Positions 18,991 to 62,027 are shown, counted from the stretch's first letter. The stretch: DNA of 64,000 nt from Actinomycetota bacterium (GCA_020438795.1 JAGQTY010000003.1:103913-167912); one strand, 5' to 3'. Numbers and translations are program-made. The notes: a model not told the origin generated them from the letters alone.

Positions 18991-19073
18991 CTCATTCTCG
19001 CTCAGACTACCCCAGAACTGCGGTCACTCACCTGGCGTTGCACCCACCCGGAGCTGACCCGGAGCCAGTCCCT

Positions 19074-19769: not shown

Positions 19770-19985
19770 GCTGATGTGCTCCGTTCCTGCCATGCGAGCT
19801 GTCCGCCAGCTTCAACGGCGGCTTTCCTGGCCGCTCGCTCCGCGGCGGTGTCAGCTTCAAACGTTAACACGGTATTGACACCCAGACCTCGTCGCGGGAT
19901 GGTGAGATAGAACACGAACCGCTGAAGTCGCTGCCGCTCAAGCGCAAGAGGGCGGCGAACGTGTCACGGCACCAACGTGCAGGTG

Positions 19986-22630: not shown

Positions 22631-22770
22631 TCGGCCATGCTGACTCAGAAACAGGTTTCATTGCCTGTCAGCAAGAGTCACTCACCGTAATGGATGCACC
22701 GCCTCAAGCCCGGTACTGAGGGGTGATTGCTGACCAGCTCCGCTCGCCCCACGGATACGTCCCCAGCCGG

Positions 22771-23145
22771 TCAGGTGCTCTGGTCCGGCAGCATGGCCGC
22801 CAGTTCGTCCCGCAGCTCGCGGCACTGCAGCGCGACCGCCGCGCGGGCCTGCGGATCGTGGTCGGGGCTGCCCAGCAGCGCCTCGGCACGCCCCGCGATC
22901 ACCGAGCCCTGCATGTGGCCGAAGGTGCCCAGCACGCCGTGGAGCTTGTGTGCCATCATCAGCCCATCCTCGGCCGGCTCCCCCGGACCGGCCTGCAGCG
23001 CAAGCTCCACTACCTGCAAGCGTTCCACCAGGGCGGGCAACCGCTCCTGCCACAACGGCACCAGCAGTTCCGGCACGGACCAGCCCGCCGTGCCGCCACG
23101 ACCCGCCTCAGACCCGGGCGTGCCCCGCTCAGTCTCCTCCGCCAC
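22771..23145 (-). CDS. Stand-alone histidine phosphotransfer (Hpt) domain protein
   Basis: MMAHKLHGVLGTFGH matches the Hpt AHxLKGxxxxxG phospho-His motif. The ~124-aa protein looks helical. The GTG start lies 7 nt after the GT2 stop. Confidence 0.7.
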   Translation of the reverse strand: MAEETERGTPGSEAGRGGTAGWSVPELLVPLWQERLPALVERLQVVELALQAGPGEPAEDGLMMAHKLHGVLGTFGHMQGSVIAGRAEALLGSPDHDPQARAAVALQCRELRDELAAMLPDQST

Positions 23146-23151
23146 CGCTGT

Positions 23152-24609
23152 CTAGCTCCCCCCGCCGGCCGTCGTCGGCCCAGCTGACTTCGACTTCGCG
23201 CTGAGGCCAGTCCTGGTCATGGTGCCCCAGGAGGACTCCCGTCCCAGGACGCCGCTCACCACACCCCTGATCCGCCACCAGGCATGGATCTGACGGAATC
23301 CGACGTTCTCCAGGATGGAGGCCGCCACGAGCAGCAGCAGATTCCTGCTGCCCCGGTAGGTCTCCGAGGTCACGTCGTCGATCACCACCGAGGCCAGCGA
23401 CACCAGAATCCCGTAGCCGATCGCCACGAGGAAGAACAGGATGGCGAACGGGATGTTGATCGCGCCGAAGATCAGGCCCAGTATCACCGCGACAAGACCC
23501 AGAAGCTCCAGGAAGGGTCCGAGCACCTCGAACAGCAGGAAGTACGGGAGCACCACCATTCCCACTCGGCCGTAGCGCGGATTGAACATCATTCTGCGGT
23601 GCTTGATCAGCAACTCCGTCAGCCCCTGGGACCAGCGACGGCGCTGCCGTCCCAGCACCTTGAAGGTCTCGGGCACCTCGGTCCAGTTCACGGTGTCCGG
23701 CACCAGCATCATCCGGTAGGGACGCTTCTCGTTGCGCATCCGGTGATGGATAGTGGCGACCAGTTCAGCGTCCTCGCCCATACAGTCCAGATCGAACCCG
23801 CCGGACTCGATCACGATGTCACGGCGGAACAAGCCGAACGCGCCCGAGATGATCAGCAGGCCGTTGATGGCGGTCCAGCCGACCCGGCCCAGCAGGAAGG
23901 CACGCAGATACTCCACGACCTGGATGCGCGGCAGCCACTTGTCGGGCATCCCGGTGGCGATCAGCTCGCCCCGGTCAATCTCGCAGCCGTTGGCCACCCG
24001 AATGACACCGCCGGTGGCAACCACGTGCTCGGGGTCGTTCACGAACGGCTGCGCCACGCGCAGCAGGCCATCGCGATCCATGACGCAGTCGGCGTCCACG
24101 ATGCTGACCAGTTCGTGCCGGGCGATGTTGATGCCGACGTTGGATGCGTCTGCTCGCCGTCCGGCGTTCTCCTTGCGGACCACGACCAGGTTCTCACCGC
24201 CGCGGGGAACGTGGACCGACTTCACCTGCCCAATCGTGGGCACGTAGCTCTCGACCACCACAGGAACCTCGCGCAGGTCGAACTCCTCGGCCAGCCGCGC
24301 GAACGTCTCGTCCTTGGAGCCGTCCTCGACCACGACCACCTCGAAGGTCGGATACTCGAGTTCGAGCATCGAACGCACCGAGTCGACGATCCCCGCCTCC
24401 TCGTTGTAGGCGGCCACCACCAGAGAGATCCCCGGCCAGAGCGGGCTCGTGGACGATTCCTGGTAACCCCGCAGCGGGGCGCGCCGGTATTCACTGGGGA
24501 CCTCGAAGGCGCTGATGATCACGAAGACCAGGTAGGAACTGTTGATCGCCAGGAAGTAGAACAGCACGATGATGTTGAACCAGAGCAGGATCTCGTCGAC
24601 GACACTCAC
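23152..24609 (-). CDS. Processive family-2 membrane glycosyltransferase (PgaC/IcaA/NodC/BcsA-like polysaccharide synthase)
   Basis: N-terminal TM helix, VVVEDGSKDET, IVDADCV (DxD), GEDAEL, QRRRWSQG (Q(R/Q)xRW), and 3-4 C-terminal TM helices. The GTG start overlaps the upstream stop (GTGA at 24606-24609). Confidence 0.9.
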   Translation of the reverse strand: MSVVDEILLWFNIIVLFYFLAINSSYLVFVIISAFEVPSEYRRAPLRGYQESSTSPLWPGISLVVAAYNEEAGIVDSVRSMLELEYPTFEVVVVEDGSKDETFARLAEEFDLREVPVVVESYVPTIGQVKSVHVPRGGENLVVVRKENAGRRADASNVGINIARHELVSIVDADCVMDRDGLLRVAQPFVNDPEHVVATGGVIRVANGCEIDRGELIATGMPDKWLPRIQVVEYLRAFLLGRVGWTAINGLLIISGAFGLFRRDIVIESGGFDLDCMGEDAELVATIHHRMRNEKRPYRMMLVPDTVNWTEVPETFKVLGRQRRRWSQGLTELLIKHRRMMFNPRYGRVGMVVLPYFLLFEVLGPFLELLGLVAVILGLIFGAINIPFAILFFLVAIGYGILVSLASVVIDDVTSETYRGSRNLLLLVAASILENVGFRQIHAWWRIRGVVSGVLGRESSWGTMTRTGLSAKSKSAGPTTAGGGS

Positions 24610-25691
24610 GACAGCGACTCCCCGCCGGAGTCCGGGCCACGCTGTGACGGTATGCGGGCCAGCGCCTCTCTCGCGTACGCCTCAGCACTGCTGCCTGGTG
24701 GCAGATCTCTGAGCGTGGCTCGGCCTGCGGGGCCGGCTGCTGCCAGGGATTCCGCGGTGGCCCGGCACACACTCGGGCTCGGATCGGACAGTTCCTGCCT
24801 CAGATACTCCAGCACCTGGGAGTCATCCAGGCTGGCCAACGCCCGCACCGCAGCAGCTCGCACCATCGGGCCCTCCGCCAGGCACATGCGAAGGGGGGCT
24901 CGGACGTCCTGGCCTCCCACGCGACCGAGTGCTCGAATCAGCTGGACCTTGGTCCAGGGGTCATTCTCCTTGCTCAGCGCCGCCACCAGCGCGTCCCTGG
25001 CGTCGAACAGATTGAGCAGACCGATGACCTGGGCCGCCACTCGCCTGGTGATCGCGTCGCGATCCTGCAGGGCGGCTGCGAGAGCCAGCTCGCCCTCGGG
25101 GCCGATGGCGAGCAGCGCCGTCGCCACGACGACCGGAGAGTTGCCGTTGCGGCGGTGCAGCGATGCCAGGAGGGTGGGCGCCGCCGCCGCATCCTCCAGC
25201 CGGCCGACGGCACGCACGGCAGCCTGGCGCACATCAGCGTCGGGATCGGTGATGAGCGCGCGGATCCTGGCCGCTGCTTCTTCGACGCGCATCGAGCCCA
25301 GCAATTCACATGCGATCGCCCGAGCGAAGGGTCGACGGGAGCGGAGCCTCTCCTGCCCCCACTCGGGGAACCGGGAACGCACCAAGTACTCACGCAGGTT
25401 GTCCCGTCCCTCGCCGGTCACCGTGTTGATGATGCGGCAGGCGCTCAGCACGATGCTCCGGGCGACGCGTCGGTCAGAGGGGAGCCTCAACGGCTCCACC
25501 TCCTCGGGACCAAGTGCCATCGCCGTCAGCATGTGCTTGCGGGCCTGCTCCACCTGTGGGGCGGCGGCACGCTCACGGCGCTCATCGAGCAGCCGATAGC
25601 CAAGGGTGTAGAGGATCGCCAGAATGCTCAGCGAGAACAGGCCGATCGCGACCCAGAAGAGGATCTCGATCGGGACCGATATCGGACTCAT
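24606..25691 (-). CDS. Membrane-anchored HEAT-repeat protein
   Basis: Start MSPISVPIEILFWVAIGLFSLSILAILY (one TM helix). Then at least 5 HEAT/PBS-lyase-like repeats: DPDADVRQAAVRAVGRL, DRDAITRRVAAQVIGLL, DPWTKVQLIRALGRVG, GPMVRAAAVRALASL, DPSPSVCRATAESLAAAG. Confidence 0.75.
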   Translation of the reverse strand: MSPISVPIEILFWVAIGLFSLSILAILYTLGYRLLDERRERAAAPQVEQARKHMLTAMALGPEEVEPLRLPSDRRVARSIVLSACRIINTVTGEGRDNLREYLVRSRFPEWGQERLRSRRPFARAIACELLGSMRVEEAAARIRALITDPDADVRQAAVRAVGRLEDAAAAPTLLASLHRRNGNSPVVVATALLAIGPEGELALAAALQDRDAITRRVAAQVIGLLNLFDARDALVAALSKENDPWTKVQLIRALGRVGGQDVRAPLRMCLAEGPMVRAAAVRALASLDDSQVLEYLRQELSDPSPSVCRATAESLAAAGPAGRATLRDLPPGSSAEAYAREALARIPSQRGPDSGGESLS

Positions 25692-25704
25692 GGCGGACCC
25701 GGGG

Positions 25705-26073
25705 TCAGACTCGTCCGATGTAGCGCCGCAACCGCGACTGCAGTTCCACGAGGCTGAACGGCTTGACGATGTAGTCATCTGCGCCGACCTCGAAACCCCT
25801 GTCGACATCGTGCTCCTGACCACGCGCGGTGAGCAGCACGATCGGCACCTCCGCGAGATCGGCATCAGCGCGCAGTTGCCGGCAGACGTCGATCCCGTTG
25901 AGCCTCGGCATCATGATGTCTAGGAGCACAAGGTCGGGCTTGAGCTCGCGGGCGCGCGCGAGCCCGGTCTCCCCATCCCCGGCACTGTGGACTGTGTGGC
26001 CGGAGACACCCAGGCGCAGCGTGACGATGTCCCGGATGTTCTCGTCGTCATCGATCACCAGTACGTCTGCCAT
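25705..26073 (-). CDS. Single-domain response regulator (REC only)
   Basis: VLVIDDDE, LVLLDIMMPRLNG, VLLTARG and YIVKPF. All phospho-acceptor pocket residues are present. Confidence 0.9.
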   Translation of the reverse strand: MADVLVIDDDENIRDIVTLRLGVSGHTVHSAGDGETGLARARELKPDLVLLDIMMPRLNGIDVCRQLRADADLAEVPIVLLTARGQEHDVDRGFEVGADDYIVKPFSLVELQSRLRRYIGRV

Positions 26074-26167
26074 TGCGATTGCTCCAGATATCGCAGTTCA
26101 GCAAGACCCTACTGACCTCGCACAGCTGAGTCGCGTTGAGCGCTGCCCGGGTGCGCCCGCAGGTGAC

Positions 26168-26192
26168 GCGGGTCGCCACAGCAGCGACCCGC
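26168..26192. promoter_or_regulatory. Perfect 9-bp inverted repeat GCGGGTCGC-n7-GCGACCCGC just upstream of a TATAGT -10-like hexamer, in the divergent REC/REC intergenic region
   Basis: Read directly from the sequence. TATAGT lies at 26196-26201 and ATG 26237 lies downstream. Confidence 0.3.
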
Positions 26193-26236
26193 GCCCTATA
26201 GTCGGGAGCACACCGTCTCACACCACTTGGGCGCCC

Positions 26237-26620
26237 ATGAAAGCTCGGATTCTTCTCGTCGACGACGAGGACGACATCAGAACCATCGCCCAGATGTGCC
26301 TTCAGGATCTGGGCGGATTCGAGACGGTCGTCGCCTCCTCCGGACCCGAGGCACTCGAGGAGGTGGGCAGGCGGTGCCCCGATGCGATCCTGCTGGACAT
26401 GATGATGCCCGGGATGGACGGTATGGAGACCCTCGCCCGGCTACGCGAGATCACCGGATGCGAGGACCTGCCTATCATCTTCATGACGGCACGCTCACAG
26501 CGACGCGAGATCGAAGAGTATCTGAGCACGGGCGCGGTCGGGGTCATCACCAAACCCTTTGATCCCATGGCACTGGCGGGGCAGGTATCGGACCTCCTGG
26601 GACTGCCGGGCGAGGCCTGA
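26237..26620 (+). CDS. Single-domain response regulator (REC only)
   Basis: ILLVDDEDD, AILLDMMMPGMDG, IIFMTAR, VITKPF. The stop overlaps the start of the hybrid kinase (TGATG at 26618-26622). Confidence 0.9.
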   Translation: MKARILLVDDEDDIRTIAQMCLQDLGGFETVVASSGPEALEEVGRRCPDAILLDMMMPGMDGMETLARLREITGCEDLPIIFMTARSQRREIEEYLSTGAVGVITKPFDPMALAGQVSDLLGLPGEA

Positions 26621-29600
26621 TGGAGCCGGCACCCATCCCGGATGACGACGCTGAGCGGTTACAGGCGCTCTACGAACTCGAGGTACTCGACACCGACCCC
26701 GATCCGGAACTCGACCGGATCACTCAGGTGGCGGCCGAGTACTTCGGCGTCCCGATCTCCCTCATCACCCTGGTCGACGAGCACCGGCAGTGGTTCAAGT
26801 CCCGGACCGGTTGGGACGCCTCGGAGGGCCCGCGAGAGACTTCGTTCTGCGGACACGTGATTACGGGCGAAGAGCCCATGATCGTTCCGGACTCCACGCG
26901 CGACCCCCGCTTCTTCGACAATCCGGACGTGATCGGGGAACCCAAGATCCGCTTCTACGCGGGGACACCACTGCACGGGCCGGACCGGCACCGTCTGGGC
27001 ACCCTATGCATCGTGGATCTGAAACCCCGAGAGCTCGATCCGGCCCAGCAGCGGATGCTCCGGGTCCTTGCGGAGGCCGCGGAACGGGCTCTGGTCAACA
27101 CCTGGCAACGGCGGCGCTATGCTCAGGCGCTCACGGCCGAGACGCGACTGGCGGCCGGACTGCGGACCACTGCCGCAGGCTGGCTCATCTGGGATGAGGA
27201 TGCCACGATTCTGGACGTGAATCCTGGGCTGCAACGGATTCTGGGCTATCGGTCGGAGGAACTGGTCGGAACGAGCGCGAAACAGCTGTTCCCGGGGGAT
27301 GGCCTCAGCACTCTCTGCCGCGATGCGGCAGACAACGCGCCACGAGCGCCACACCGACTGGCCGCGGCCGCGCGTGACGGTAGCACCGTTCCCGTGAGCG
27401 CAGTGGTGAGCGAACTGGAGATCCGCGAGCAGCGACAATACGTCGGGATCTTCACCGATCTGACAGAGCTGGTCCAGGCCGAGGACGAGCTGTCACAGTT
27501 CTTCAAGCTGTCATTCGACCTGCTGTGCATCGCCAATAAGTACGGCCGCTTCGTCCGCCTCAACCCAGCGTTCGAGGAGGTGCTGGGATTCCCCACCCGC
27601 GAACTCCTCCAGCGTCCGATCCTCGACTGGGTGCTGCCGGAGGACCGTGAAGCCACGGCCAGAGAACTGCAGGCAGTGGCCGGTGGGGCTGAGACGCACA
27701 ACTTCGAGAACCGCTGGCGCCGCAGCGACGGCGAGGTGCGGACCCTGGTCTGGTCGGCACGCGCAGACCCGAACTCAGAGCTGATCTATGCCGCGGCGCG
27801 AGACATCACCGCCGAACGCCGCCAGTACCTGGAACTGCGACGCCTCGACGAACAGATCCGGGCATCCCCGCTGCTGATTGCGACCATGGACACGGACCTG
27901 GCGCTCACCAGCGTAAACGCAACCTGGGCATTACTGCGGGGTCCCGGCGCCGCGGGCGATCTGACGCTGGACGACCTCTACACCATGGAGGCCGCAAGAA
28001 GGATGCGCCAGGAGATCGCTCCCGAGGTGCTGGCATCCGGCTCCTGGAGCGGTGAGGTGCAGATCCGGGCCGCCCATGACCGGACCCGGACCATCAACCA
28101 GACTGTGCTGCGGCAAGTCGATGCCAGTGGACGGGCGGGCCTGTCGGTAGTGGCCCACGACGTCTCGGAGTACAAGGAACTGGACCGAATGAAGGACGAG
28201 TTCATCTCCACGGTCTCCCACGAACTGCGTACCCCTCTCACCTCGATCCGTGGCTCGCTCGGACTGGTGGCGGCAGGTGCCGCCGGCCAACTGCCGGAGA
28301 AGGCCGCCGGACTGATCGGCATCGCGAACCAGAACACCGAACGGCTCATCCGGCTCATCAACGATGTGCTGGATCTGGAGAAGATCCAGTCCGGGACGGC
28401 CGCCCTGAACCTCCACGACGAACGGATGGACCGCATCGTCTCGGAATCCCTGAGTTCGGTGGAGGGCATGGCCTCGGACAACGACGTCCAGCTCCGCTCC
28501 AGGCGCGGCGAGGATCTCCCCGAGGTCTCGGTGGATCGGGACCGGATCGTACAGGTGCTCACCAATCTGCTCTCCAACGCGATCAAGTTCTCCGAACCGG
28601 GGCAGGCCGTCGAGATTGGCAGCGCCGTCGTCGACGATGAGATACAGGTGACAGTCAAGGACTTCGGCGTCGGCATCCCGGCTGATCACCTCGAAGCCAT
28701 CTTCGGACGCTTCCAGCAGGTCGACTCCACCACCAGTCGTGCGAAGGGCGGCACCGGGCTCGGCCTGGCCATCAGCCGCGAGATCGCCCATATGCATGGC
28801 GGCACCCTCGAGGTCACGAGTGCACCGGGAGCCGGCAGCACGTTCACCCTGCGACTGCCCCTGCCCGCCGATATGGCAGCCCACCAGCCTCAGCCGAACG
28901 AGCAGGAGCAGGTGGCGCTCGCCCCCGGCCCGGACATCCTGGTCGTCGAGGACGACGACGACCTGGCCCATGTCATGATCAGTCTGCTCGAAACAGCCGG
29001 CTACTCCGCGCTCAGCGTGGACTCACTGCAATCGGCCCGGGAACGGGTGTTCTCTGTGATCCCCGACCTCGTGCTGCTGGACCTGCAGCTGCCGGACGGA
29101 CACGGGCTGGATCTCGTCCACGAGATGAAGGACGACCCGGACCTGGCAAGGGTGCCGATCATGGTCGTGACCGGTACGCGGACCAACCGGCCCGCGGTGC
29201 CCACCATCGTGGACTGGATCACCAAACCCATCACCAACGACGGGTTGCTGGCGAGTGTCGAACGGGCCCTCCTGGAGGACGAGGGCGCAACGGCGCTGAT
29301 CGTGGAGGATGACGAACAGGCCCGGACCATCATGGCCACCGTTCTGGAAGACCGCGGTCTGACGGTGATCCAGTCGGACTCGGGCGAGGCAGCCCTGCGG
29401 CTGCTCGGGTCCATCCAGCCCGACATCATCGTGCTGGACGTCGGCCTGCCCAACGTGGACGGCTTCGAGTTCATGGCGAGGCTGGCGGACACACACAGCG
29501 CCGAGACACCGGTGATCGTGTTCACAGGCAGAGAGCTCACCGAGTCCGACAGACAACGACTGACCCGCGGAATGACCACGTTCCTCACCAAGACGAAGGC

Positions 29601-29670
29601 CACCAATGAGCAGTTCGCCCACACGGTGCTGCAGGCCCTGGAACACCACCGGGCCCGACACTGCCGTTGA
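26620..29670 (+). CDS. Cytoplasmic hybrid histidine kinase: GAF - ~3 PAS - HisKA - HATPase_c - REC - REC
   Basis: GAF (RLQALYELEVLDT...RFYAGTPL...LGTLCIVD), PAS-like blocks (ILDVNPGLQRILGY..., FVRLNPAFEEVLGF...), H-box FISTVSHELRTPLTSI, N/G boxes (LLSNAIKFS, DFGVGIP, GGTGLGLAIS) and two receivers (LVLLDLQLPDGHG; IIVLDVGLPNVDG). No TM segment. Confidence 0.9.
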   Translation: MEPAPIPDDDAERLQALYELEVLDTDPDPELDRITQVAAEYFGVPISLITLVDEHRQWFKSRTGWDASEGPRETSFCGHVITGEEPMIVPDSTRDPRFFDNPDVIGEPKIRFYAGTPLHGPDRHRLGTLCIVDLKPRELDPAQQRMLRVLAEAAERALVNTWQRRRYAQALTAETRLAAGLRTTAAGWLIWDEDATILDVNPGLQRILGYRSEELVGTSAKQLFPGDGLSTLCRDAADNAPRAPHRLAAAARDGSTVPVSAVVSELEIREQRQYVGIFTDLTELVQAEDELSQFFKLSFDLLCIANKYGRFVRLNPAFEEVLGFPTRELLQRPILDWVLPEDREATARELQAVAGGAETHNFENRWRRSDGEVRTLVWSARADPNSELIYAAARDITAERRQYLELRRLDEQIRASPLLIATMDTDLALTSVNATWALLRGPGAAGDLTLDDLYTMEAARRMRQEIAPEVLASGSWSGEVQIRAAHDRTRTINQTVLRQVDASGRAGLSVVAHDVSEYKELDRMKDEFISTVSHELRTPLTSIRGSLGLVAAGAAGQLPEKAAGLIGIANQNTERLIRLINDVLDLEKIQSGTAALNLHDERMDRIVSESLSSVEGMASDNDVQLRSRRGEDLPEVSVDRDRIVQVLTNLLSNAIKFSEPGQAVEIGSAVVDDEIQVTVKDFGVGIPADHLEAIFGRFQQVDSTTSRAKGGTGLGLAISREIAHMHGGTLEVTSAPGAGSTFTLRLPLPADMAAHQPQPNEQEQVALAPGPDILVVEDDDDLAHVMISLLETAGYSALSVDSLQSARERVFSVIPDLVLLDLQLPDGHGLDLVHEMKDDPDLARVPIMVVTGTRTNRPAVPTIVDWITKPITNDGLLASVERALLEDEGATALIVEDDEQARTIMATVLEDRGLTVIQSDSGEAALRLLGSIQPDIIVLDVGLPNVDGFEFMARLADTHSAETPVIVFTGRELTESDRQRLTRGMTTFLTKTKATNEQFAHTVLQALEHHRARHCR

Positions 29671-29759
29671 GCGGACCGGAGCGTCAGGAACTGTGCCGGT
29701 CAATGGCGCAGTCTCCGCCACACAGGGCATGTCGGGGTGCCCGCGGTGGGGAGGACCGG

Positions 29760-30698
29760 CTACTGGCCGTCGATGACCAGGCGGTCCCGCCCGGTCTCCT
29801 TCGCACGATAAAGGGCATCGTCAGCCGCCTTGGCGATGTCGCGGAACTCCGAGATCGCTCCCCGTGCGTAGCCGCCACTGGCCTTCACATGCAACGACAA
29901 CTGCGGCCCCACCACCATAGGGGTCCTCCCAATGGCCTCACGAACCGCACGAGCCACCTCCTCGTCCTGGGGTGGCGTGGGGTTCTCGATGATGAGCATG
30001 AACTCCTCACCGCCCCAGCGCACCACTCGACGCCCACTGGCCGCGTTGTCGAGGCGCTTGGCGGCGATCTGCAGCACCACATCGCCCGCGGCATGACCGT
30101 ACTCGTCGTTGACGTGCTTGAAGTGGTCGATGTCCAGCAGCAATGCCCCCAGCTGAGAACCCTCCGGAGCCGTGGTTGTCAGATTCGCCATATGGGTGTC
30201 GAGCCAACGCCGATTCTTCAGGCCCGTGAGGGCATCCACCGTGCTCTGCTGCTGCAACTGGTTCATCCGGTGCTGCAGTTCCCTGTCCTGGGCGGCCAGC
30301 CGGGTCAAGGTCTGCACCCTGGCCACGAGTTCCTGCGGGTGGCAGGGCTTGCGGATGTAGTCCCGCGCCCCCTCCTCCAACCCTCTGGCAGCGGCGTCGC
30401 CGTCGACACGAGCGGTGAGGAAGATGACCGGGATGTCGGCCAGTTGCGGACGCTGCTTCAGCGCACGGATCGTTGCCAGACCGTCCATTCTGGGCATGTC
30501 GACATCGAGCAGGAACAGGTCGGGCGGATCCTGCTGGGCCACAGCCAAGGCCTCACTGCCGTCCGCGGCCTCCATCGTCCGGAACCCGGCTCCGGCCAAT
30601 ATCCGCACCATGATGGCCCTGACCGCCCGGCTGTCGTCGGCGATCAGCACGGTGAGAGCACCACTGTCCTGTTCACGCCGGTGCTGGGGCTCGGCCAT
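29760..30698 (-). CDS. REC-GGDEF response regulator diguanylate cyclase (WspR/PleD-like)
   Basis: REC (LIADDSRAV, LFLLDVDMPRMDG, VIFLTAR, YIRKPC), a coiled linker, and GGDEF (LLLDIDHFKHVNDEYGH, RWGGEEF). There is no RxxD at the canonical I-site position (ASGR instead). ATGA overlap with the upstream cheX-like gene. Confidence 0.9.
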   Translation of the reverse strand: MAEPQHRREQDSGALTVLIADDSRAVRAIMVRILAGAGFRTMEAADGSEALAVAQQDPPDLFLLDVDMPRMDGLATIRALKQRPQLADIPVIFLTARVDGDAAARGLEEGARDYIRKPCHPQELVARVQTLTRLAAQDRELQHRMNQLQQQSTVDALTGLKNRRWLDTHMANLTTTAPEGSQLGALLLDIDHFKHVNDEYGHAAGDVVLQIAAKRLDNAASGRRVVRWGGEEFMLIIENPTPPQDEEVARAVREAIGRTPMVVGPQLSLHVKASGGYARGAISEFRDIAKAADDALYRAKETGRDRLVIDGQ

Positions 30699-31129
30699 CA
30701 GCTATCCACCTGCATTTCGTCGAGGTCGAGGTCGATGATGAAGAAGGACCCACCAGCCAGGAACCCGGCGCTCAGATCCGCAGCAGGCTCCGTGCCGGCG
30801 GGGACAGCCTCGGGCAGGCCGATCAGGCAGGGCTGCGGGAGCACCCCGGCCAGGTTCCCTGCCACCATGTTGGTCAGCTCGCCCAGAGTGTCAAGCAGAT
30901 CTGCGTCTTCGAGCGGCGCTTCCCCCAGCAGGGCAGCGGCGAACACCTCGGCACTCGCAGTGGGACAGTGCAGTGTCACCCGGCCGCGGCTGGCCCCTGT
31001 GAAAGCAATGCTGCTTGCCAGATCGGGGGCAGGGCCCGCCTGCGGATCGGTCGGCACCGCCTCCATGTCGAACATCGTCGACCAGACCGAGAAGACGACT
31101 TCATTCAGCAGCGCTTCATAGCCGGTCAT
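30698..31129 (-). CDS. cheX: CheX/CheC-family chemotaxis phosphatase-like protein
   Basis: 143 aa. LGELTNMVAGNLAG matches the CheC/CheX E-x2-N active-site helix. ATGA overlaps on both sides. Confidence 0.7.
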   Translation of the reverse strand: MTGYEALLNEVVFSVWSTMFDMEAVPTDPQAGPAPDLASSIAFTGASRGRVTLHCPTASAEVFAAALLGEAPLEDADLLDTLGELTNMVAGNLAGVLPQPCLIGLPEAVPAGTEPAADLSAGFLAGGSFFIIDLDLDEMQVDS

Positions 31130-31935
31130 GAGTCCGCACCATCCTGTCGGCGATAGGCGACGACCCTACCCACGGTAGAGGATTCGAGGGAGGGTATCGA
31201 AGTCAGTGTGGATTCGGCGCTGCCGAGGATCAAGTAGCCGCCGGGGTTCAGATGCCTGGCGACCCGCTGCAGCACCCGCTCGCGCGTCTCGGCCCCGAAG
31301 TAGATGAGCACATTGCGGAGCAGGATCAGGTCGAAGGACGCGCCGGGGCTTTCCGAGACCAGATTGAGCCGCTGGAACCGGACCAGGTCCCTGATCTGAG
31401 GCTTCACCACCCACGCAAGACCGTTACGGTCGAAGTACTGCACCAGGTAGCGAGCGGGCAGGCCGCGGTTCACCTCCAGCTGGGAGTACTGGGCGGCCTG
31501 CGCCACAGCCAATGCCCCCGTGGCGAGGTCGGTGCCCAGCACGCTGATCGGGCGCGCTGCGAACCTCGAGGTAGCGAGCAGCGCCAGGCTGTAGGCCTCC
31601 TGGCCGGTGGCCGTCGCCGCTGACCAGATCCGCGGAACGGCTGTTCTTTCCATCAGGTCCGGAAACACCTGTGTCTCCAGGGCACGCCAGAGCGCCGGAT
31701 CGCGGAAGAACGAGGTCTCCTTGGTGAGCATCTCCGAAACGACGCGTATGCGCGCTTCCCGGTCTCCAAGACGACACTGCGCAATCAGCTCGTCGATGCT
31801 TTCGAGGTCACGCTCCTTTGCTACCGGGAGCAGTCGGGCGTTCACCAGATACTCTTTACCCTCGGGCAGTTCGACCCCGGCTTCCTGGAGCAGGATCGCC
31901 TGCACATAGGCGAAGTCGTCGGGCCTGACCGTCAT
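31126..31935 (-). CDS. cheR: Chemotaxis protein methyltransferase CheR
   Basis: ETSFFRD, IWSAATATGQEAYSLA, DLILLRNVLIYF. Start at ATG 31935 (ATGA overlap with the cheB stop). Confidence 0.9.
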   Translation of the reverse strand: MTVRPDDFAYVQAILLQEAGVELPEGKEYLVNARLLPVAKERDLESIDELIAQCRLGDREARIRVVSEMLTKETSFFRDPALWRALETQVFPDLMERTAVPRIWSAATATGQEAYSLALLATSRFAARPISVLGTDLATGALAVAQAAQYSQLEVNRGLPARYLVQYFDRNGLAWVVKPQIRDLVRFQRLNLVSESPGASFDLILLRNVLIYFGAETRERVLQRVARHLNPGGYLILGSAESTLTSIPSLESSTVGRVVAYRRQDGADS

Positions 31936-32975
31936 ACCGTGGTCCGTCCCTGGCCACGCGCTGCGACCTCGGCTGCCAGTCCCTGCGGCGACAATGAGGC
32001 ATACTCCAGACCCGCGCTGCGCACCGCGGCGGGCATCGAGTCCACCACGCACGAAGCGGCGTCCTGCGCCAGCACGGTCCCCCCGCGCTCCACCACTGCA
32101 GCCGAACCGATGAGCCCGTCGTGCCCCAGTCCAGTCATCACGATGGCGAGCAGCCCCCTGCCGTAGACCTCGGCGGCAGTCCGGAACAGGTGATCGGCCG
32201 CGGGACGCGCATGGGCCTCCCGCGGGCCGTCGCTGAGGCGAGCGAGCACCGAGTGCTCCGGACCGGTCACGACCCCCAGGTGCCGACCGCCCGGCGCGAG
32301 GTACACGTGACCACGAAGTATCCGGGTGTCTTCAGCCGCGACCTGGACCGGCAGCCTGCAACGACTGGCCAGTCGTTCAGCCAGCGCCGCCGGGAAGGGC
32401 TCCGGCATGTGCTGCACGATCAGCATGGGCGTGGACAGCGGACCTGGAACACTGCTCAGGAAAGCTTCGAGCGTTTCAGGCCCCCCGGTGGACACACCCA
32501 CCACCACGGCAGAGATGCGGCTCCCGTGTGAGTCGGGAATGGGCTTGGGTCGCGGTGGCGCTGCCGACTTCGGAGCCGGTGGCCGGGAGACCTTGAGCAG
32601 CAGCTGCACCAACTGCCCCACCCAATCCTCGTTCGATGTCAGGCTCGAAGGTTTCGGCACGAAGCCGACCGCTCCCTCGGCCAGCGCAGCGACAGTCTCC
32701 CTGGGACCTTCACCGACATGGGAACTGAGCACCACGACGGGGATCTGTTCACCCCGACGCTGCAACTCCTTGAGAAGGCCCCTGCCGTCCAGGACAGGCA
32801 TGTGCAGGTCCAGTACCACGGCGTCCGGCCTCTGTGCGAGGATCCGCCGCAGACCGACCTCACCGTTCTCCGCCAGCCCGGCCAACTCCAGGTCCCGGTG
32901 ATCACGGATCACCTGTGTGATGGCACGGCGAGCGACAGCAGAGTCGTCGACCACCAGGATGCGCCTCGGCGACAT
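31932..32975 (-). CDS. cheB: Chemotaxis response regulator protein-glutamate methylesterase CheB
   Basis: REC (ILVVDDSAVAR, VVLDLHMPVLDG) plus the methylesterase catalytic triad context (GVSTGGPETL, VQHMP, MTGLGHDG). Confidence 0.9.
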   Translation of the reverse strand: MSPRRILVVDDSAVARRAITQVIRDHRDLELAGLAENGEVGLRRILAQRPDAVVLDLHMPVLDGRGLLKELQRRGEQIPVVVLSSHVGEGPRETVAALAEGAVGFVPKPSSLTSNEDWVGQLVQLLLKVSRPPAPKSAAPPRPKPIPDSHGSRISAVVVGVSTGGPETLEAFLSSVPGPLSTPMLIVQHMPEPFPAALAERLASRCRLPVQVAAEDTRILRGHVYLAPGGRHLGVVTGPEHSVLARLSDGPREAHARPAADHLFRTAAEVYGRGLLAIVMTGLGHDGLIGSAAVVERGGTVLAQDAASCVVDSMPAAVRSAGLEYASLSPQGLAAEVAARGQGRTTV

Positions 32976-32976
32976 A

Positions 32977-33357
32977 TCAGACCTCGAAACCGAGCAGCTC
33001 GAGCTTCTGTGCGAGCACCTCCTGCGTGAACGGCTTCATGAGATACTCATCGGCACCCAGGGCAAGCGCTCGGCCGATCTGGTCGATCTCGGTCTCGGTG
33101 GTGACCATCATGACGACGCCTCGGTAGTCGTAGGGCTTCGCCCGGACCGCCTCGACGAAGTCGACACCGCTCATGCCCGGCATGTGCCAATCGACCAGCA
33201 CCATGTCGGGCACACCGCCGGCGGTGGCGTCGGCAAGCAACTCCAGCGCTGCCAGTCCGGAATCGGCTTCGGAGATCGTCTGACAGCCCATCTGTTTCAG
33301 CATGCTCGCCAGGATTCTGCGCATCGTCCGAGAATCGTCGATCAGGAGGACATGCAT
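32977..33357 (-). CDS. cheY: Chemotaxis response regulator CheY
   Basis: Start MHVLLIDDSRTMRR. Also LVDWHMPGMSG, MMVTTE, LMKPF. 126 aa. Confidence 0.9.
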   Translation of the reverse strand: MHVLLIDDSRTMRRILASMLKQMGCQTISEADSGLAALELLADATAGGVPDMVLVDWHMPGMSGVDFVEAVRAKPYDYRGVVMMVTTETEIDQIGRALALGADEYLMKPFTQEVLAQKLELLGFEV

Positions 33358-33370
33358 GCGGCATCCAGTC

Positions 33371-33820
33371 TCAGTCTTTGGCGGAGAGCATCGCTTCAAT
33401 GTCTACCAACACCAGCATCTCCGTGTCTCCCCGGAGTACGGCAACAGCATGACGTCTGATGCCCTCATCGATGGTGGCCGGGACAGGCTGCCATCGGTCT
33501 GGCGGGCACTCCACGACTCCAACAGCGCTGTCCACATGCACCCCGCCCCAGCGCTGATCGCGTTCGAGCAGCACGCAGACCGGGGTACCGCCGGGACGCG
33601 GTGCGAGTCCGAGACGTTCACGGGCATCGGTGATAGCCAGGACATGGCCGCGCAGATTCGCGATGCCGACCACTGCTTGCGGGGCCAGCGGCACCTCGGT
33701 GAAGGGCAGTCCACGCACTGTCTCGCGGACATGCTCCACGGAGAAGGCGATGAGCACGTCGTCCACCCGGAAGGCTGCCACGACCGCGGGCAGCTTGGCC
33801 TTCAGCTCGGCGGGGGTCAT
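33371..33820 (-). CDS. cheW: Chemotaxis coupling protein CheW
   Basis: 149 aa. FRVDDVLIAFSVEHVRE...VVGIANLRGHVLAITD is typical of the CheW domain. ATGA overlap with the cheA stop. Confidence 0.9.
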   Translation of the reverse strand: MTPAELKAKLPAVVAAFRVDDVLIAFSVEHVRETVRGLPFTEVPLAPQAVVGIANLRGHVLAITDARERLGLAPRPGGTPVCVLLERDQRWGGVHVDSAVGVVECPPDRWQPVPATIDEGIRRHAVAVLRGDTEMLVLVDIEAMLSAKD

Positions 33821-35904
33821 GTCGGCCCTCCGGCCGCTCCGTAGGCACCCAGGTCGACCAGGTCGGTGACCCTGCCGTCGATGACCGAGGTACCACTGAC
33901 GCGGGAATCCGTCACAGCGGACCAGGATGCCGGACCGGACCGTATCTCGATGATCCGCGCGACGGCCAGTCCCACCAGCTCATCACCCCGGCGGCAGATC
34001 ACCACATTCGCCATCTCCGGCGTTCCCAGCGCCCCAGCCGACGACTGCGTGAGCACCCCGGCGTGATCAACCAGCCTGACGATCCGGTCGTCATACTGGA
34101 ACACCAGTTGCTCCCCCGCACGCTCGATGGCTGACGTCGGCACCTGAACCAGCCGTTCCACCTCGTCCAGGAGCACCGCGTTGCGGCGATCGTCGAGACC
34201 GGCGACGAGCAGGACCGGCGCTCCCAGATCCGGAGCCACCGGCGTCGTCCTGCCACGGTTGGCCGCCTCGACCGCGCTCACATCGATGCCACGGCCGAGC
34301 GCCCCGATGTCGAGGATGAGTGCGGCTCTTCCGTCCGGTAGCACGGTCGCACCCCCGTACGGGGAGATCCCCCGGATCACATTCGGCAACGGCTTCACGA
34401 CCGCCTCGAAGTTGTCCTCCACCTGATCCACGATGAAACCGAACCGACGCCCCCCGCTTCGGAGGAGCACCAGCTCCAGCACGGCCCCCCCAGCGAGTGG
34501 GGGTGCCTTGGGCGCGATGACCGACGCCGGGACCAGCGGGGTGAGTTCGTCCTCACGTCGCAGGAACAGTGCATCCTCGACGTTGAGCAGAGCCTCGGCC
34601 TGTTCTGCCGGTTCGAGCCTGACCATCGTCTCGACGTCGATCTGCGGGAGTGCATAGCTGATCCCTGCGACGCGGACCACGATCACGTTCACGATCGCTA
34701 ACGTGAGCGGTAGATCGAGAATGACCGTCGTACCCTGTCCGGGGGTGGACCTGAGCTCGGCGGTGCCACCCACCTGTTCCGCGGCAGAGCGGACCACATC
34801 CATCCCGACGCCACGTCCAGAGGTCTTGGTGATGGCGCTGGCTGTGGACAGTCCAGGAATGAACACCAGATCCAGGATCTCGGCGGGAGTCCGCCCCGCC
34901 ATCTCCGCCTTGGTGCGGTGGCCGGCTGCGATCACCTTGTCGGCCAGCGCTTCCGGATCGATCCCCCGGCCATCGTCGGAGACCGTCAGCCGGACCCGGC
35001 TGCCGGACACGGTCACCGAGATGTCGATGGTGCCGAAATCGGTCTTACCAGCCGCGAGCCGGTCGTTCGGCAGCTCGATGCCATGGTCGACCGCATTGCG
35101 CAGCACGTGGATCAGCGGATCCAGGATCAGCTCATTGATGGCCTTGTCGACTCCGACATCCTTGTCCGAGATGGTCAGGTCTACCCGCTTGTTCTGTTCC
35201 TGTGCCAGGTCGCGCACAATGCGTGGCAGCTTGTTGAGCACGGTGGCGATCGGCTGCATCCGGGCGAACATGACGATGTCCTGCAGTTGTTTGCTCGCCT
35301 GCCGCAGCCGGCGATACGGCTCGGCCATCCGCTCGTTGCCGACGATCTCCTCGGCCAGCTGGGCACGAGCGAATGCGATGTCGGACACGAGGTCCTGGAG
35401 CTGGTCGAGCACCTTGACATCCACGCGCACGGAGGCCTCACGAGCGTGGGCCGGTTCCGCACGAGCTGCCGCCGCATCCCGCTCAGCCACGGGTGCCTCG
35501 GGCTGCTGCGGCAGCGGGCCCTCGCTCAGATGCGTTCGCAGCAGTGGCGCCACCAGGTTGGCGTCGACATGCTCGTCGGAGCCTTCCTCGGCGATCAGGT
35601 TCAGTGCCTGCTCGACGACATCGGCGAGCCTCAGCAGGCTCGTGGTCAGGTCGGCGGTGACCCGTAGTTCGCCACGACGCACCGCGCCGAGCACGTCCTC
35701 CGCGGCATGCGTGATCTCCTCCAGGTGATCGAAACCGAGGAATCCGCAGGTCCCCTTCATGGTGTGAACGGCACGGAAGATCCGGTCGAGCAGTTCCTGA
35801 TCGCCGGCGTTGGCCTCGAGCTGCACCAGGTCCAGGTTGAGCTGCTCCAGACCCTCCCTGGATTCCTCCAGAAAGATCTCGACCATCTCCGGGTCGGCGT
35901 TCAC
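33817..35904 (-). CDS. cheA: Chemotaxis histidine kinase CheA (no fused receiver)
   Basis: P1 Hpt (FRAVHTMKGTCGFLGF), dimerisation and HATPase (HVLRNAVDHGIE, DDGRGID, GRGVGMDVV), and CheW-like P5 region(s). Start chosen at GTG 35904, 7 nt after the MCP stop; an alternative ATG lies at 35886. Confidence 0.9.
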   Translation of the reverse strand: MNADPEMVEIFLEESREGLEQLNLDLVQLEANAGDQELLDRIFRAVHTMKGTCGFLGFDHLEEITHAAEDVLGAVRRGELRVTADLTTSLLRLADVVEQALNLIAEEGSDEHVDANLVAPLLRTHLSEGPLPQQPEAPVAERDAAAARAEPAHAREASVRVDVKVLDQLQDLVSDIAFARAQLAEEIVGNERMAEPYRRLRQASKQLQDIVMFARMQPIATVLNKLPRIVRDLAQEQNKRVDLTISDKDVGVDKAINELILDPLIHVLRNAVDHGIELPNDRLAAGKTDFGTIDISVTVSGSRVRLTVSDDGRGIDPEALADKVIAAGHRTKAEMAGRTPAEILDLVFIPGLSTASAITKTSGRGVGMDVVRSAAEQVGGTAELRSTPGQGTTVILDLPLTLAIVNVIVVRVAGISYALPQIDVETMVRLEPAEQAEALLNVEDALFLRREDELTPLVPASVIAPKAPPLAGGAVLELVLLRSGGRRFGFIVDQVEDNFEAVVKPLPNVIRGISPYGGATVLPDGRAALILDIGALGRGIDVSAVEAANRGRTTPVAPDLGAPVLLVAGLDDRRNAVLLDEVERLVQVPTSAIERAGEQLVFQYDDRIVRLVDHAGVLTQSSAGALGTPEMANVVICRRGDELVGLAVARIIEIRSGPASWSAVTDSRVSGTSVIDGRVTDLVDLGAYGAAGGPT

Positions 35905-35911
35905 GGGCTGA

Positions 35912-37540
35912 TCACCTTCCGGGGCCCTGATCCGGGGCGCGGGTGTCCAGGGTGAAGCGCACAACCAGGGAGTTGAGCGTGGTCGCCAGTTCGGCAAGGG
36001 CCTGCGACGCACTGAGTGTGTCCGCGGCGCTGTCCGTGGTTCCCTGGGCTGCCTCTGCCACCCCGGCGATGTTGCGGGCGATGTCGGCGGAAGCGGTCGC
36101 TGTGCCGTTGAGCGTCATGCCGATCTCACGCGTGGTGGCTGCCTGCTCCTCGACGGAGGTCGCGATGCTGGACTGATAGCTGTTGATCTTGTCGATGATC
36201 TCGGCGATGTCCCCGATCGCAGAAACCGCCTGTTCGGTGTCGGACTGGATCCTGCCGATCCTCTCGTCGATCTCCTCGCTGGCCTTCACGGTGCGGCTGG
36301 CCAGGTCCTTAACCTCGTTGGCGACCACTGTGAAGCCCTTGCCGGCTTCCCCGGCCCGGGCCGCTTCGATGGTGGCGTTCAGAGCCAGCAGGTTGGTCTG
36401 CTCGGCGATCGAAGTGATGAGCGTGGTCACCTCTCCGATCTCGCTGGACGCCTGGCCGAGGGACTGCACGGTGGCCCGCGTCGACGCCGAGACCGATACC
36501 GCCTCCTGGCCGACGACCGAGGCGTCGGTGGCGTTCTTGGAGATTTCGCGGATACTCACATTCAGTTCCTCGGCGCCGCTGGCCACCGACTGGAGGTTCT
36601 GGGAGACCTCCTCCGCCCCGGCAGAGACCCCGGTCGCCTGAGTCGTGGTCTGCTCCGCGGCGCTGCCCAACGTAGTGCTGATCGCAGAGAGTTCCTCCGC
36701 GCTGGACGCCAATGACTGGGAGCTCTCTGCGATCTGTACGACCGCCATGTTGGTACTGGCCGTGGCGGTGTTGAGGGCAGTGGCGACCTCGGCCAGCTCG
36801 TCCCGGGTGTCATCCTCGACCCTGACCCGGAGGTCACCCTCAGCCACCTTGCCGAGTGCGAGCTGGATGCGTCGCAGCGGCACCGCGATCGAGCGGCCAA
36901 GGACGGCGCCCAGCACGATCGCCGCCAGGATGGCCAGGATGCTGACCACTACGATCACGATCCTTGAGGTGGTTGATGCCGCAGCGGCGTCATCGGCGAT
37001 CTGGCGCGTGGTGTTCTCGAGGTCCGCAGCGATGCTGGACAACTCATCGACCTGGGCACTGAGCTGGTCGCGCACCGCCCCTTCGATCTGCGCCCGACCC
37101 TTCGCCCGCTCGGCTTCGCTGCCCTGGAGCAGTTCGCTCGCAGTGGCGATCAGGCTCTGCAGCTGGGTGAAGTCATTCTGCACCTGAGACAGTCGCGACT
37201 TGTTCTGCGAGCTCAGTTCCTCGCCCAGGATGGTCGAGATATCAGTCTTGAAGGTGTTGAGGAACTGGTTCATCTCGGCAAGGCTGGGCGATGTATCGCC
37301 GTTCTCCTGCGCCGCGAGCAACGCGCCCTGAGTATGGGACTCCACCTGCGTCAAATCGTACCGGAGGTCCAGGACCGTCCCGGTGGTGGTGATGGCTCGG
37401 GCCAGCCGCTCACGAGCGTCGGAGCCGTTGACCATCTGCACGAAGGCCACGATGGCGATGATGGCCAGCAGCACCACCACGATGGCGAACGAGATGGTGA
37501 TGCGCGTACCGATCCGCAGGCGTCTGGCCAGCTCAGTCAT
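35912..37540 (-). CDS. Methyl-accepting chemotaxis protein (2 TM, ~160-aa extracytoplasmic helical sensor, HAMP, signalling domain)
   Basis: Highly conserved hairpin tip [37 protein letters not shown] helices at [21 protein letters not shown] and [25 protein letters not shown] motif ([17 protein letters not shown]). Confidence 0.9.
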
Positions 37541-37687
37541 GGCAACAAGATAGTGGGGCGGCAAGGAACGTGGCCGAGTTGTCGGGCCCCGCGCCAGACA
37601 TAGGGGTCAATACCGGACACGCCGCGGCCACCTCGGCATGGGCAGAGGAATCGGAATGGTAACGGGCATGGGCATCGAGCGGGAGCA

Positions 37688-38320
37688 TCAGAGAAGATCG
37701 TGCGCCCGGGCCCATCGAGCCAGTTCCCGCCGGTTACTCAGTTGCAGCTTGCGCAGGACCGCCGACATGTGGGTCTCGATGGTCTTCACGCTCAGGAAGA
37801 GTTCGTCGGCGGCTTCCCGATACGTATCACCCCGGGCGATCAGCCGCATCACATCTCGTTCACGCGGGGTCAGCTGATCCAGTTCCGTGACCGCAGCACT
37901 GGACCGATCCCGGAACGCATCCAGAACGAAGCCGGCGAGCTTCGGGCTGAACACGGCCTCGCCGGCTGCCACCCGTCGGATCGCGTCGGCCAGGTCTGGC
38001 GCGGTGATGTTCTTGGTCACGTAGCCCCGGGCACCTCGCCGCACGACCCCGATCACATCCTCAGCGTCATCGGACACTGAAAGCGCCAGAAAGCGGGTCT
38101 CGGATGCCTGAGCGCCCAGCTGCGCCAGCACCGAACCCGCATTGCCACCCGGAAGGTGCACATCGAGCAGCACCACATCGGGCTGGACGTCGGCGATCAC
38201 GGACACGGCCGTATCCACGTCATCGGCCTCGCCAACCACTTCGAAGTCGTCCGGAAGGTCGGCCCGGATCCCCGCTCGGACCAGGGGGTGGTCATCAACG
38301 ATCACAAGACGCAGGCTCAT
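37688..38320 (-). CDS. NarL/LuxR-family response regulator (LiaR-like)
   Basis: LVIVDDHPLVRAG, VVLLDVHLPGG, and HTH LTPRERDVMRLIARGDTYREAADELFLSVKTIETHMSAVLRKL. Confidence 0.9.
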   Translation of the reverse strand: MSLRLVIVDDHPLVRAGIRADLPDDFEVVGEADDVDTAVSVIADVQPDVVLLDVHLPGGNAGSVLAQLGAQASETRFLALSVSDDAEDVIGVVRRGARGYVTKNITAPDLADAIRRVAAGEAVFSPKLAGFVLDAFRDRSSAAVTELDQLTPRERDVMRLIARGDTYREAADELFLSVKTIETHMSAVLRKLQLSNRRELARWARAHDLL

Positions 38321-38347
38321 CGTGGCCAACTCCAACTGCTGACGGGG

Positions 38348-39544: not shown

Positions 39545-39641
39545 CTCAGGGAAACACCCTGAGGTGGGGTGCGCCGGATCGGGGACGGTTCAGGGTTCTT
39601 CCCCGATGTGCGGCCACCCTCCCGGAGCACATCATCGAGAC

Positions 39642-41451: not shown

Positions 41452-41699
41452 GGCAGCCCCGGCGAGTACAGCCGCGGTCCGGCAGCGTACGACTGCGATC
41501 TCCAGACCGAGCAGTGCCGGAACGTCAGCATGCCGAGGGTGTTCCTGACATGGACGGAATCAGAACAGGCGCGACTGCTGGGCGATCTAGGTATACGCAG
41601 ATCACAGCTAGGTTCGCAGACGAGTGACCCCACGGAATCTCGTGCCACGAAACGAGTGCCATCGACCGATCGTGAGGGTATCCCTGCGATTGGAGCGCC

Positions 41700-62011: not shown

Positions 62012-62027
62012 TAGGAGCAACTCGTCA

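Follow-up and report, generated by a model that had tools for sequence, protein, structure and literature searches.

Do a chemosensory operon and a polysaccharide synthase operon that lie side by side in an actinobacterial genome form one regulatory system, or are they two systems that stand as neighbours? The question is raised by 15 kb of DNA within a 64,000-nucleotide stretch from an uncultured Actinomycetota bacterium (GCA_020438795.1 JAGQTY010000003.1:103913-167912), the whole of which is hereafter called the window. Eight of the genes form a chemosensory (Che) operon that ends in a diguanylate cyclase (DGC) made of a receiver (REC) and a GGDEF domain; we call this module A (29760-37564). 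Six others, module B (22771-29670), encode a hybrid histidine kinase (HHK), two stand-alone receivers (REC1 and REC2), a stand-alone Hpt protein, a HEAT-repeat protein with a transmembrane (TM) helix and a processive family 2 glycosyltransferase (GT2). An earlier note, made from the sequence alone, had described all of this as one supercluster whose inputs converge on cyclic di-GMP (c-di-GMP) and on the synthase. Our analysis gives a different answer: what is new here is a widespread variant of synthase-dependent polysaccharide production and a Che-to-cyclase operon derived from the F5 chemosensory class, not a single 15-kb integrated system. The arrangement probably consists of two independently conserved modules as neighbours, an F5-type Che-to-cyclase operon and a putatively phosphorelay-gated polysaccharide synthase.

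The two modules part company when they are followed into other genomes. We compiled 83 Che loci, 80 from a CheX-based metagenome scan (conserved Y-B-R-X core) and three (L087, L088 and L089) that are the closest CheA relatives with readable neighbourhoods. None of the 83, including 20 with at least 5 kb of sequence downstream of CheX, contained a match to GT2, HEAT or Hpt, and no che genes were present within 10 kb in the HEAT-GT2 loci examined. Since no Che locus carries the synthase module and no synthase locus carries che genes, the adjacency is best read as lineage-specific, and a functional coupling is possible. The supercluster thus does not hold as one syntenic unit, and a lack of synteny in related genomes is what the earlier note had set in advance as the mark of chance adjacency. 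Within the Che operon and within the synthase module, gene order is conserved above chance, because it recurs in unrelated contigs. Mis-assembly of the region is unlikely, as identical proteins are present on several independently assembled contigs; GC content is even across it (0.65-0.67).

Module A recurs as a unit. The order MCP-CheA-CheW-CheY-CheB-CheR-CheX-REC/GGDEF is identical in L087-L089, whose flanks are unrelated and whose CheA proteins, 43-44% identical to that of the window, are its closest homologues; in a crude neighbour-joining tree, the CheA proteins of these loci and of the window form their own clade. Orthologues of the cyclase (43-46% identity) occupy the same position in L087-L089, L099, L140 and L171. 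Among the 46 of the 83 loci that were informative, i.e. had at least 1.1 kb downstream of CheX, a full REC-GGDEF protein followed CheX in six, a non-GGDEF receiver in 11, a second CheX in seven and none of these in 22, while a REC-GGDEF gene lay upstream of cheA in three other Che loci. As previously claimed, the operon ends in a REC-GGDEF protein with an intact GGEEF motif (residues 229-233); its receiver Asp65 is intact as well, motif reading found no RxxD I-site, and the protein is apparently an active cyclase, to judge from these residues. CheX carries the conserved GE(L/M)xN motif, including the Glu and Asn of ExxN (alignment A3). CheA is composed of P1 (Hpt), P3, P4 and P5 followed by a second C-terminal CheW-like domain, lacks P2 and REC, and scores below the NCBIfam equivalog cutoffs. 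The receptor has two TM segments, an extracytoplasmic sensor resembling a four-helix bundle, a HAMP domain and a signalling domain of ~38 heptads. In PDB alignments its C-terminal arm measures approximately 132 residues, or 19 heptads per arm, and is shorter by 7 residues than that of PcaY (6s18) and by 21 than that of TM1143 (2ch7), two receptors used as references.

To which chemosensory class does this operon belong? The label given to it before was "Wsp-like". With the Wsp system of Pseudomonas (WspABCDEF-WspR, ACF class) module A shares a receptor/CheA pathway, adaptation by CheB and CheR, and an output REC-GGDEF response regulator encoded within the che operon. It differs from Wsp in its CheA, which has no Response_reg match, hence is no WspE-type CheA-REC hybrid, and carries the second CheW domain. 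Moreover, CheY is present together with one stand-alone CheW and one CheX, as opposed to two CheW and no CheX, the receptor has ~38 heptads versus 40H, the cyclase is without the I-site and the gene order is different. The defining traits of the actinobacterial flagellar class F5 are an extra CheW domain in CheA, an A-W...B-R order and 38H receptors; in Table S3 of the same study, F5 systems have CheX, and actinobacterial ACF systems, whose receptors belong to the 40H class, have two CheW and no CheX (PMC10746217). Module A matches F5 in the two CheW stretches of its CheA, which the Kineococcus CheA P0280 likewise has, in its M-A-W-Y-B-R-X order with CheX and without CheC or CheD, and, approximately, in its 38H receptor as estimated from arm length. 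Given the extra CheW domain, the single CheW, CheX and the ~38-heptad receptor, module A is F5-type by composition and not Wsp/ACF, and "Wsp-like" has to be given up as a statement of class membership.

The actinobacterial F5 systems of Kineococcus, Cellulomonas and Actinoplanes (PMC10746217) thus resemble module A in the extra CheW domain of CheA, A-W...B-R order, CheX, single CheW and 38H receptors, and the Kineococcus operon even ends in CheX-REC-x as module A does. Module A stands apart, on the other hand, in ending with a bona fide GGDEF cyclase, in its compact layout (M-A-W-Y-B-R-X-DGC) and in a CheA that falls into a separate clade. Module A might then simply be a flagellar chemotaxis operon in which CheY acts on the motor, with the REC-GGDEF protein as an accessory that lowers motility or as a phosphate sink, unrelated to polysaccharide. 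All the F5 traits just listed, including those of Table S3, fit such a role, as do the two CheW stretches in the Kineococcus F5 CheA, the B-R-Y-X-REC end of its operon and a window CheY that is 50% identical to the Kineococcus CheY. However, no flagellar or pilus gene is found in the 64-kb window or within 10 kb of the orthologous operons in L087-L089, the DGC-terminated operons form their separate CheA clade, and the terminal protein of Kineococcus is not a GGDEF protein. We consider a purely flagellar role conceivable and rather doubtful. The protein at the cyclase position in Kineococcus esterisolvens (L090:20850-21755), where the flagellar-class F5 operon ends CheB-CheR-CheY-CheX, has 301 aa; it begins with a receiver and continues to the C-terminus with ~180 aa that have no Pfam match. 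It was considered as a cryptic GGDEF protein and rejected, as only the receiver aligns and there is no GGDEF similarity.

Module B, too, is found as a unit elsewhere. In the window, REC2 and the hybrid kinase run on the plus strand, convergent with the Che operon and divergent from REC1-HEAT-GT2-Hpt. In L091 and L092, REC-HEAT-GT2-Hpt-REC-GAF/PAS-HHK is one co-directional six-gene operon, and L173 has REC-HEAT-GT2-Hpt-REC in the same order followed by a 968-aa gene at the kinase position that is cut at the contig end (GT2 identity 72-73% in all three). The kinase orthologues of L091 and L092 are 40-41% identical to that of the window and their REC2 orthologues, located between Hpt and kinase, 58-60%; a gene called as Hpt occupies the same position in L003, L091, L092 and L173. 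A GAF-PAS kinase followed by REC-HEAT-GT2 is present in L174 (GT2 identity 59%), and REC-HEAT-GT2 appears in the same order in Spirilliplanes (L001), in the 69%-identical metagenomic relative L003 (also with Hpt) and in the metagenome-assembled genome (MAG) L006, as well as in Ilumatobacteraceae, Aeromicrobium and other MAGs. It follows from the co-directional operons of L091, L092 and L173 and from the related loci that the six genes of the window make up a single functional module, which here is divided between two divergently transcribed units, and the earlier grouping of kinase, Hpt, receivers, HEAT and GT2 is borne out. L003 is the closest relative, with a GT2 identity of 90% and a DNA identity of 76% over REC1-GT2. 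Both L003 and L005 preserve, at 3-98, the C-terminal 31 residues of the gene upstream of REC1 (EAIRALKRKIARRLYNTMK...), presumably the end of an IS110-family transposase, which would place a mobile element beside the synthase unit in the closest relative. The HEAT gene of L091 (8918-10004) is split into two called genes of 292 and 83 aa whose underlying open frames overlap, which is either a frameshift, an assembly error or a pseudogene. In L174, a gene of the GH114 family (endo-alpha-1,4-polygalactosaminidase) lies at 938-1738 (minus strand), ~3 kb upstream of REC-HEAT-GT2.

The gene next upstream of HEAT encodes a receiver in L001, L003, L006, L008, L009, L010, L091, L092, L173 and L174. In L012 and L013 this receiver is fused into a larger protein, and in L011 it precedes an untyped TM protein occupying the HEAT position. 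A Bacteroidales MAG encodes a CHASE3-PAS-HK-REC-Hpt hybrid and, right behind it, REC, an untyped TM protein and GT2. The L012 fusion of Jeotgalibacillus salarius (L012:7303-8931) has 542 aa comprising Hpt, a receiver-like domain, GGDEF and REC; it occupies the REC position directly upstream of TM-HEAT and GT2 and has an intact GGEEF motif and no I-site. As read from its domains, this protein would be a Rosetta-stone-type link of Hpt, cyclase and synthase-associated receiver, and it is the only hint of a c-di-GMP link to the synthase. The clostridial loci have other upstream neighbours of HEAT, which are not receivers: those of L014 (4764-6887), L018 (1650-3764) and L016 (1754-3322) share a conserved size of 520-710 aa and have no Pfam match, and the L014 and L018 proteins begin with an N-terminal TM helix.

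How specific is the pairing of HEAT and GT2? A GT2-based scan of reference genomes gave 80 loci among the matches listed, which were annotated by tblastn and by hmmsearch of all open reading frames (ORFs) with a HEAT profile; most of them contain distant GT2s and served as negative controls. Wherever GT2 identity was 44% or more and DNA upstream of GT2 was available, the listed locus had a HEAT-profile ORF ending at the GT2 start. At 33-38% identity, such an ORF also lies upstream in Bacillales, a Lachnospiraceae MAG, a Terriglobia MAG and one unclassified bacterial MAG, and Pfam identified HEAT in two further clostridial partners. By contrast, none of the 66 listed loci at 32% identity or below had a HEAT-profile ORF upstream of GT2, and there was no HEAT match elsewhere in any of the listed GT2 loci. 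As far as these comparisons reach, HEAT partners go with this GT2 subfamily only, and their occurrence in Bacillota and in a Terriglobia MAG means that the module is not limited to Actinomycetota. Detectable HEAT homologues are few, all of ~350-400 aa and of the same TM-plus-solenoid build, including those of Dactylosporangium, Spirilliplanes and Pilimelia; matches of the profile against 1.84 billion representatives were dominated by giant generic HEAT-repeat proteins. GT2 relatives at E <1e-30 number more than 5,500 among the candidates examined, and carriers of the family include cultivable strains, among them Spirilliplanes yamanashiensis, Dactylosporangium spp., Jeotgalibacillus salarius and Sporosarcina luteola. 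That the partner is not a PilZ, PgaD or BcsB protein remains correct; literature searches found no publication describing a HEAT-GT2 synthase, and the exopolysaccharide (EPS) clusters of Actinoplanes missouriensis contain no HEAT-GT2 cassette (PMC13390465).

The synthase itself is a membrane-integrated processive GT2, with a GT-A domain fused to a TM channel; the motifs of this domain (D, DxD, (E/T)ED, QxxRW) are invariant in alignments A2 and A4. The motifs DAD, GED and QRRRW reported before were confirmed, and QVVEY was found besides. The AlphaFold2 (AF2) model (pLDDT 83, pTM 0.85) has as its best structural matches in Foldseek, at E values of 1e-15 to 1e-12 and over nearly the full length, the hyaluronan synthases (HAS) of Chlorella virus and Xenopus (HAS1), the yeast chitin synthase Chs1 and BcsA, with 7sp8 as top match (E 1.6e-15, TM 0.58, nearly full length); a PDB sequence search with GT2 returned only BcsA, at 1e-8. 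With these enzymes it shares fold and motifs (D, DxD, QxxEY, (E/D)D, QxxRW), yet identity is only 13-18% and PilZ and BcsB are missing here. It is not of BcsA type: there is no PilZ match, the protein ends after its C-terminal TM helices and no BcsB-like gene is present. PgaCD/IcaAD-type enzymes, whose activity is thought to need a small membrane partner encoded next to them and an allosteric signal, have the same GT2 build of N-terminal TM, GT-A domain and C-terminal TMs. PgaC/IcaA is also the best NCBIfam match, whereas GT2 scores below the PgaC_IcaA equivalog cutoff, and domain scans of the cluster found neither a PgaD/IcaD partner nor a polysaccharide deacetylase domain (PgaB/IcaB). In place of PgaD/IcaD, a TM-HEAT solenoid of 361 aa is encoded upstream, and the proposed signal is a phosphorylated receiver and not c-di-GMP. 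The AF2 model of the HEAT protein (pLDDT 91.7) has a long N-terminal TM/stalk helix and an alpha-solenoid of ~17 helices, which is predicted to be cytoplasmic, on the receiver's side, because of the positive-inside rule; Foldseek searches with it retrieved only generic solenoids (designed alphaRep, Integrator, AP2, CpcE/F). The mixed-linkage glucan synthase RiGT2 of Romboutsia was ruled out as a relative of the Firmicute members, being a PilZ-bearing BcsA-like enzyme.

What signal would such a synthase receive? All receivers of the region keep the acidic pocket, phospho-Asp, Thr and Lys, with D52/T83/K105 in REC1 and D53/T84/K106 in REC2. The hybrid kinase has an H-box (SHELRTPL) and two receivers, so the residues of a His-Asp-His-Asp relay, i.e. 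kinase His and receiver Asp, Hpt His and terminal receiver Asp/Thr/Lys, are all in place. Relays with a stand-alone Hpt, such as LuxQ-LuxU-LuxO and HptB of P. aeruginosa, resemble module B in that Hpt and terminal receiver are proteins of their own, apart from a hybrid kinase that carries one or more receivers, but here the terminal receiver is without output domain and encoded first in the synthase operon. The nearest precedent is the Dif-EpsW-EpsZ pathway of Myxococcus, in which a phosphorylated single-domain receiver activates a polysaccharide enzyme post-translationally under a kinase pathway (PMC12802240; PMC4671073): EpsW~P activates the phosphoglycosyl transferase EpsZ downstream of the Che-like Dif system (PMC12802240). 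EpsZ belongs to a Wzx/Wzy pathway, whereas in module B a GAF/PAS hybrid kinase, paired with a stand-alone Hpt, would act on a GT2 of the synthase-dependent kind that has HEAT as its adaptor.

What we observe is the gene content, the intact domains, and how conserved and specific the gene pairings are; we infer which way the phosphate moves, what kind of product is made and any influence of module A through c-di-GMP. In module A, the transmembrane receptor would control CheA, which would phosphorylate CheY, CheB and the terminal REC-GGDEF protein, with CheX as the phosphatase that resets the receivers; a receptor signal would in this way lead to c-di-GMP synthesis, possibly alongside an output of CheY. 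In module B, the hybrid kinase would autophosphorylate and hand the phosphate to its own receiver, from there to the stand-alone Hpt and on to REC1, the proposed terminal acceptor, while REC2 is probably a competing sink or modulator. REC1~P, which has no DNA-binding output, might dock on the cytoplasmic HEAT solenoid, whose single TM helix would pack against the HAS/PgaC-like GT2. The synthase would thereby be switched on to polymerise and translocate a beta-linked polysaccharide. A bolder version of this proposal, which we put forward only tentatively, is that REC and HEAT solenoid constitute an undescribed regulatory pair that gates a HAS/PgaC-like GT2 by phosphorylation, in place of c-di-GMP acting with PilZ or PgaD, and that they define a distinct and widespread EPS class (Actinomycetota, Bacillota, a Terriglobia MAG and possibly Bacteroidota), which stands here beside an F5-derived Che-to-cyclase pathway with both inputs acting on one polymer.

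Several observations weigh against our preferred model. Pfam scans detected no c-di-GMP receptor domain (PilZ, degenerate GGDEF/EAL, MshEN) in the cluster, and no riboswitch or other Rfam element was found in 19000-38500 at E values up to 1, so that the supposed convergence of c-di-GMP on the synthase finds no receiving element there. Module A has a flagellar F5 composition and a CheY close to that of Kineococcus, and may possibly control motility. The PgaC/IcaA match of GT2 is weak (TIGR03937, 123.6 bits versus a cutoff of 422.3), the HEAT fold is a generic binder scaffold, clostridial HEAT-GT2 loci have no adjacent receiver, so that the receiver is not universal, and contacts among REC, HEAT and GT2 are themselves only predicted.

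The stand-alone receivers might instead be sinks or connectors for a transcriptional output encoded elsewhere, with HEAT as a structural or localisation subunit and a synthase that is not phospho-gated. Single-domain receivers are often sinks, an OmpR-type regulator lies just upstream of REC1 in L173, and the clostridial HEAT-GT2 pairs do without an adjacent receiver. Nevertheless, more than ten independent loci from Actinomycetota and Bacillota have a receiver as the gene next upstream of HEAT, whether their kinase is hybrid (with Hpt) or classical, and in the window a gap of 13 nt separates REC1 from HEAT, which makes this alternative quite unlikely. Equally improbable is a truly integrated system in which the Che-to-DGC pathway and the GAF/PAS relay converge on one synthase, HEAT-GT2 senses the c-di-GMP of the operon and adjacency is functional, for although the modules are contiguous and convergent in the window, PgaCD-type synthases are activated by c-di-GMP and the active-looking cyclase fused with Hpt and receiver in L012 links c-di-GMP independently to the synthase family, the Che loci compiled and the HEAT-GT2 loci examined lack each other's genes, L003 has neither REC2/HHK nor che genes beside REC1, and the cluster contains none of the receptor domains or riboswitches sought. 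Two neighbouring modules thus remain the preferred reading.

The ORF listing together with Pfam/NCBIfam scans confirmed all 14 genes at essentially the positions first reported, with every domain assignment backed by Pfam (Table 1). Four ATGA overlaps had been described in the Che operon; three were read as such (cheA/cheW, cheB/cheR and cheR/cheX), while the cheX/DGC junction is TGATG with a 1-nt overlap, and the reported gaps of 1-13 nt stand (7 nt for MCP/cheA, 13 nt for cheW/cheY and 1 nt for cheY/cheB). In the synthase unit, HEAT and GT2 overlap in GTGA, with gaps of 13 nt for REC1/HEAT and 6 nt for GT2/Hpt, and REC2 and the hybrid kinase overlap by 1 nt. Promoter and terminator scans gave counts not above those of shuffled sequence.

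Table 1. The 14 genes of the two modules in the window
Product	Coordinates	Strand	Features
MCP	35912-37564	-	Pfam HAMP and MCPsignal; 4HB_MCP_1 25.3 bits, just under cutoff
CheA	33817-35904	-	Pfam Hpt, H-kinase_dim, HATPase, two CheW stretches; no REC
CheW	33371-33820	-	Pfam; sole stand-alone CheW
CheY	32977-33357	-	single-domain receiver; start is the ATG 13 nt past the cheW stop
CheB methylesterase	31932-32975	-	Pfam REC and CheB_methylest
CheR methyltransferase	31126-31935	-	Pfam; ATGA overlaps on both sides
CheX-type phosphatase	30698-31129	-	Pfam CheX, 57 bits
REC-GGDEF diguanylate cyclase (DGC)	29760-30698	-	Pfam REC and GGDEF
Hybrid histidine kinase (HHK), cytoplasmic	26620-29670	+	GAF, PAS repeats, HisKA, HATPase, REC, REC
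REC2, stand-alone receiver	26237-26620	+	translationally coupled to the hybrid kinase (TGATG)
REC1, stand-alone receiver	25705-26073	-	first gene of the synthase unit
HEAT-repeat protein, membrane-anchored, 361 aa	24606-25691	-	Pfam HEAT_2
GT2 synthase, processive, membrane-embedded	23152-24609	-	motifs DAD, QVVEY, GED, QRRRW
Stand-alone Hpt	22771-23145	-	Pfam Hpt, 28.1 bits versus cutoff 24.6; AHKLHG motif

Downstream of the synthase unit, after a gap of ~110 nt, Pfam confirmed the previously noted FG-GAP/pentapeptide, FN3 and SGNH genes. The first of these (19986-22661, minus strand) encodes 891 aa with FG-GAP repeats, an Ig-like (HYDIN/VesB-like) domain and long pentapeptide-repeat arrays, and is followed by the FN3 protein and then by an SGNH protein of the AT3-associated type. 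They were considered as conserved members of the module and rejected, having no matches in any related locus. Directly upstream of the MCP gene, 37688-41012 encodes two PspC-domain proteins, a histidine kinase and a divergent membrane protein, together with a LuxR-type response regulator; the three look like an envelope-stress-type unit. Four kb past the Che operon, a 1592-aa protein (41676-46454, plus strand) combines a domain of the endo-beta-1,3-glucanase family GH81 with DUF1996, two CBM6 and a CBM35-like domain, and could be a candidate for beta-glucan degradation. Further away, a tRNA-Thr (anticodon TGT; 15587-15660, plus strand) lies between a strictosidine-synthase-like gene and unannotated ORFs, and a SAM riboswitch (Rfam RF00162, 81 bits; 61897-62011, plus strand) falls within the stop-to-stop ORF 61698-63311, whose real gene start must therefore be downstream of the riboswitch.

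The 15-kb juxtaposition is not conserved and should not be annotated as one system without experimental evidence. Each half has its own significance. A sub-lineage of Actinomycetota has joined an F5 scaffold, nominally flagellar, to a diguanylate cyclase and so has arrived independently at a functional counterpart of Wsp. Synthase-dependent exopolysaccharides such as cellulose, poly-N-acetylglucosamine (PNAG), alginate and Pel are textbook targets of c-di-GMP, each with an accessory subunit that receives the signal. If our proposal is true, REC-HEAT-GT2 would extend this list by a family that takes up its signal, a receiver phosphorylated through a phosphorelay, with a HEAT solenoid. The abundance of this family and its cultivable carriers make the hypothesis of phospho-gating directly testable.

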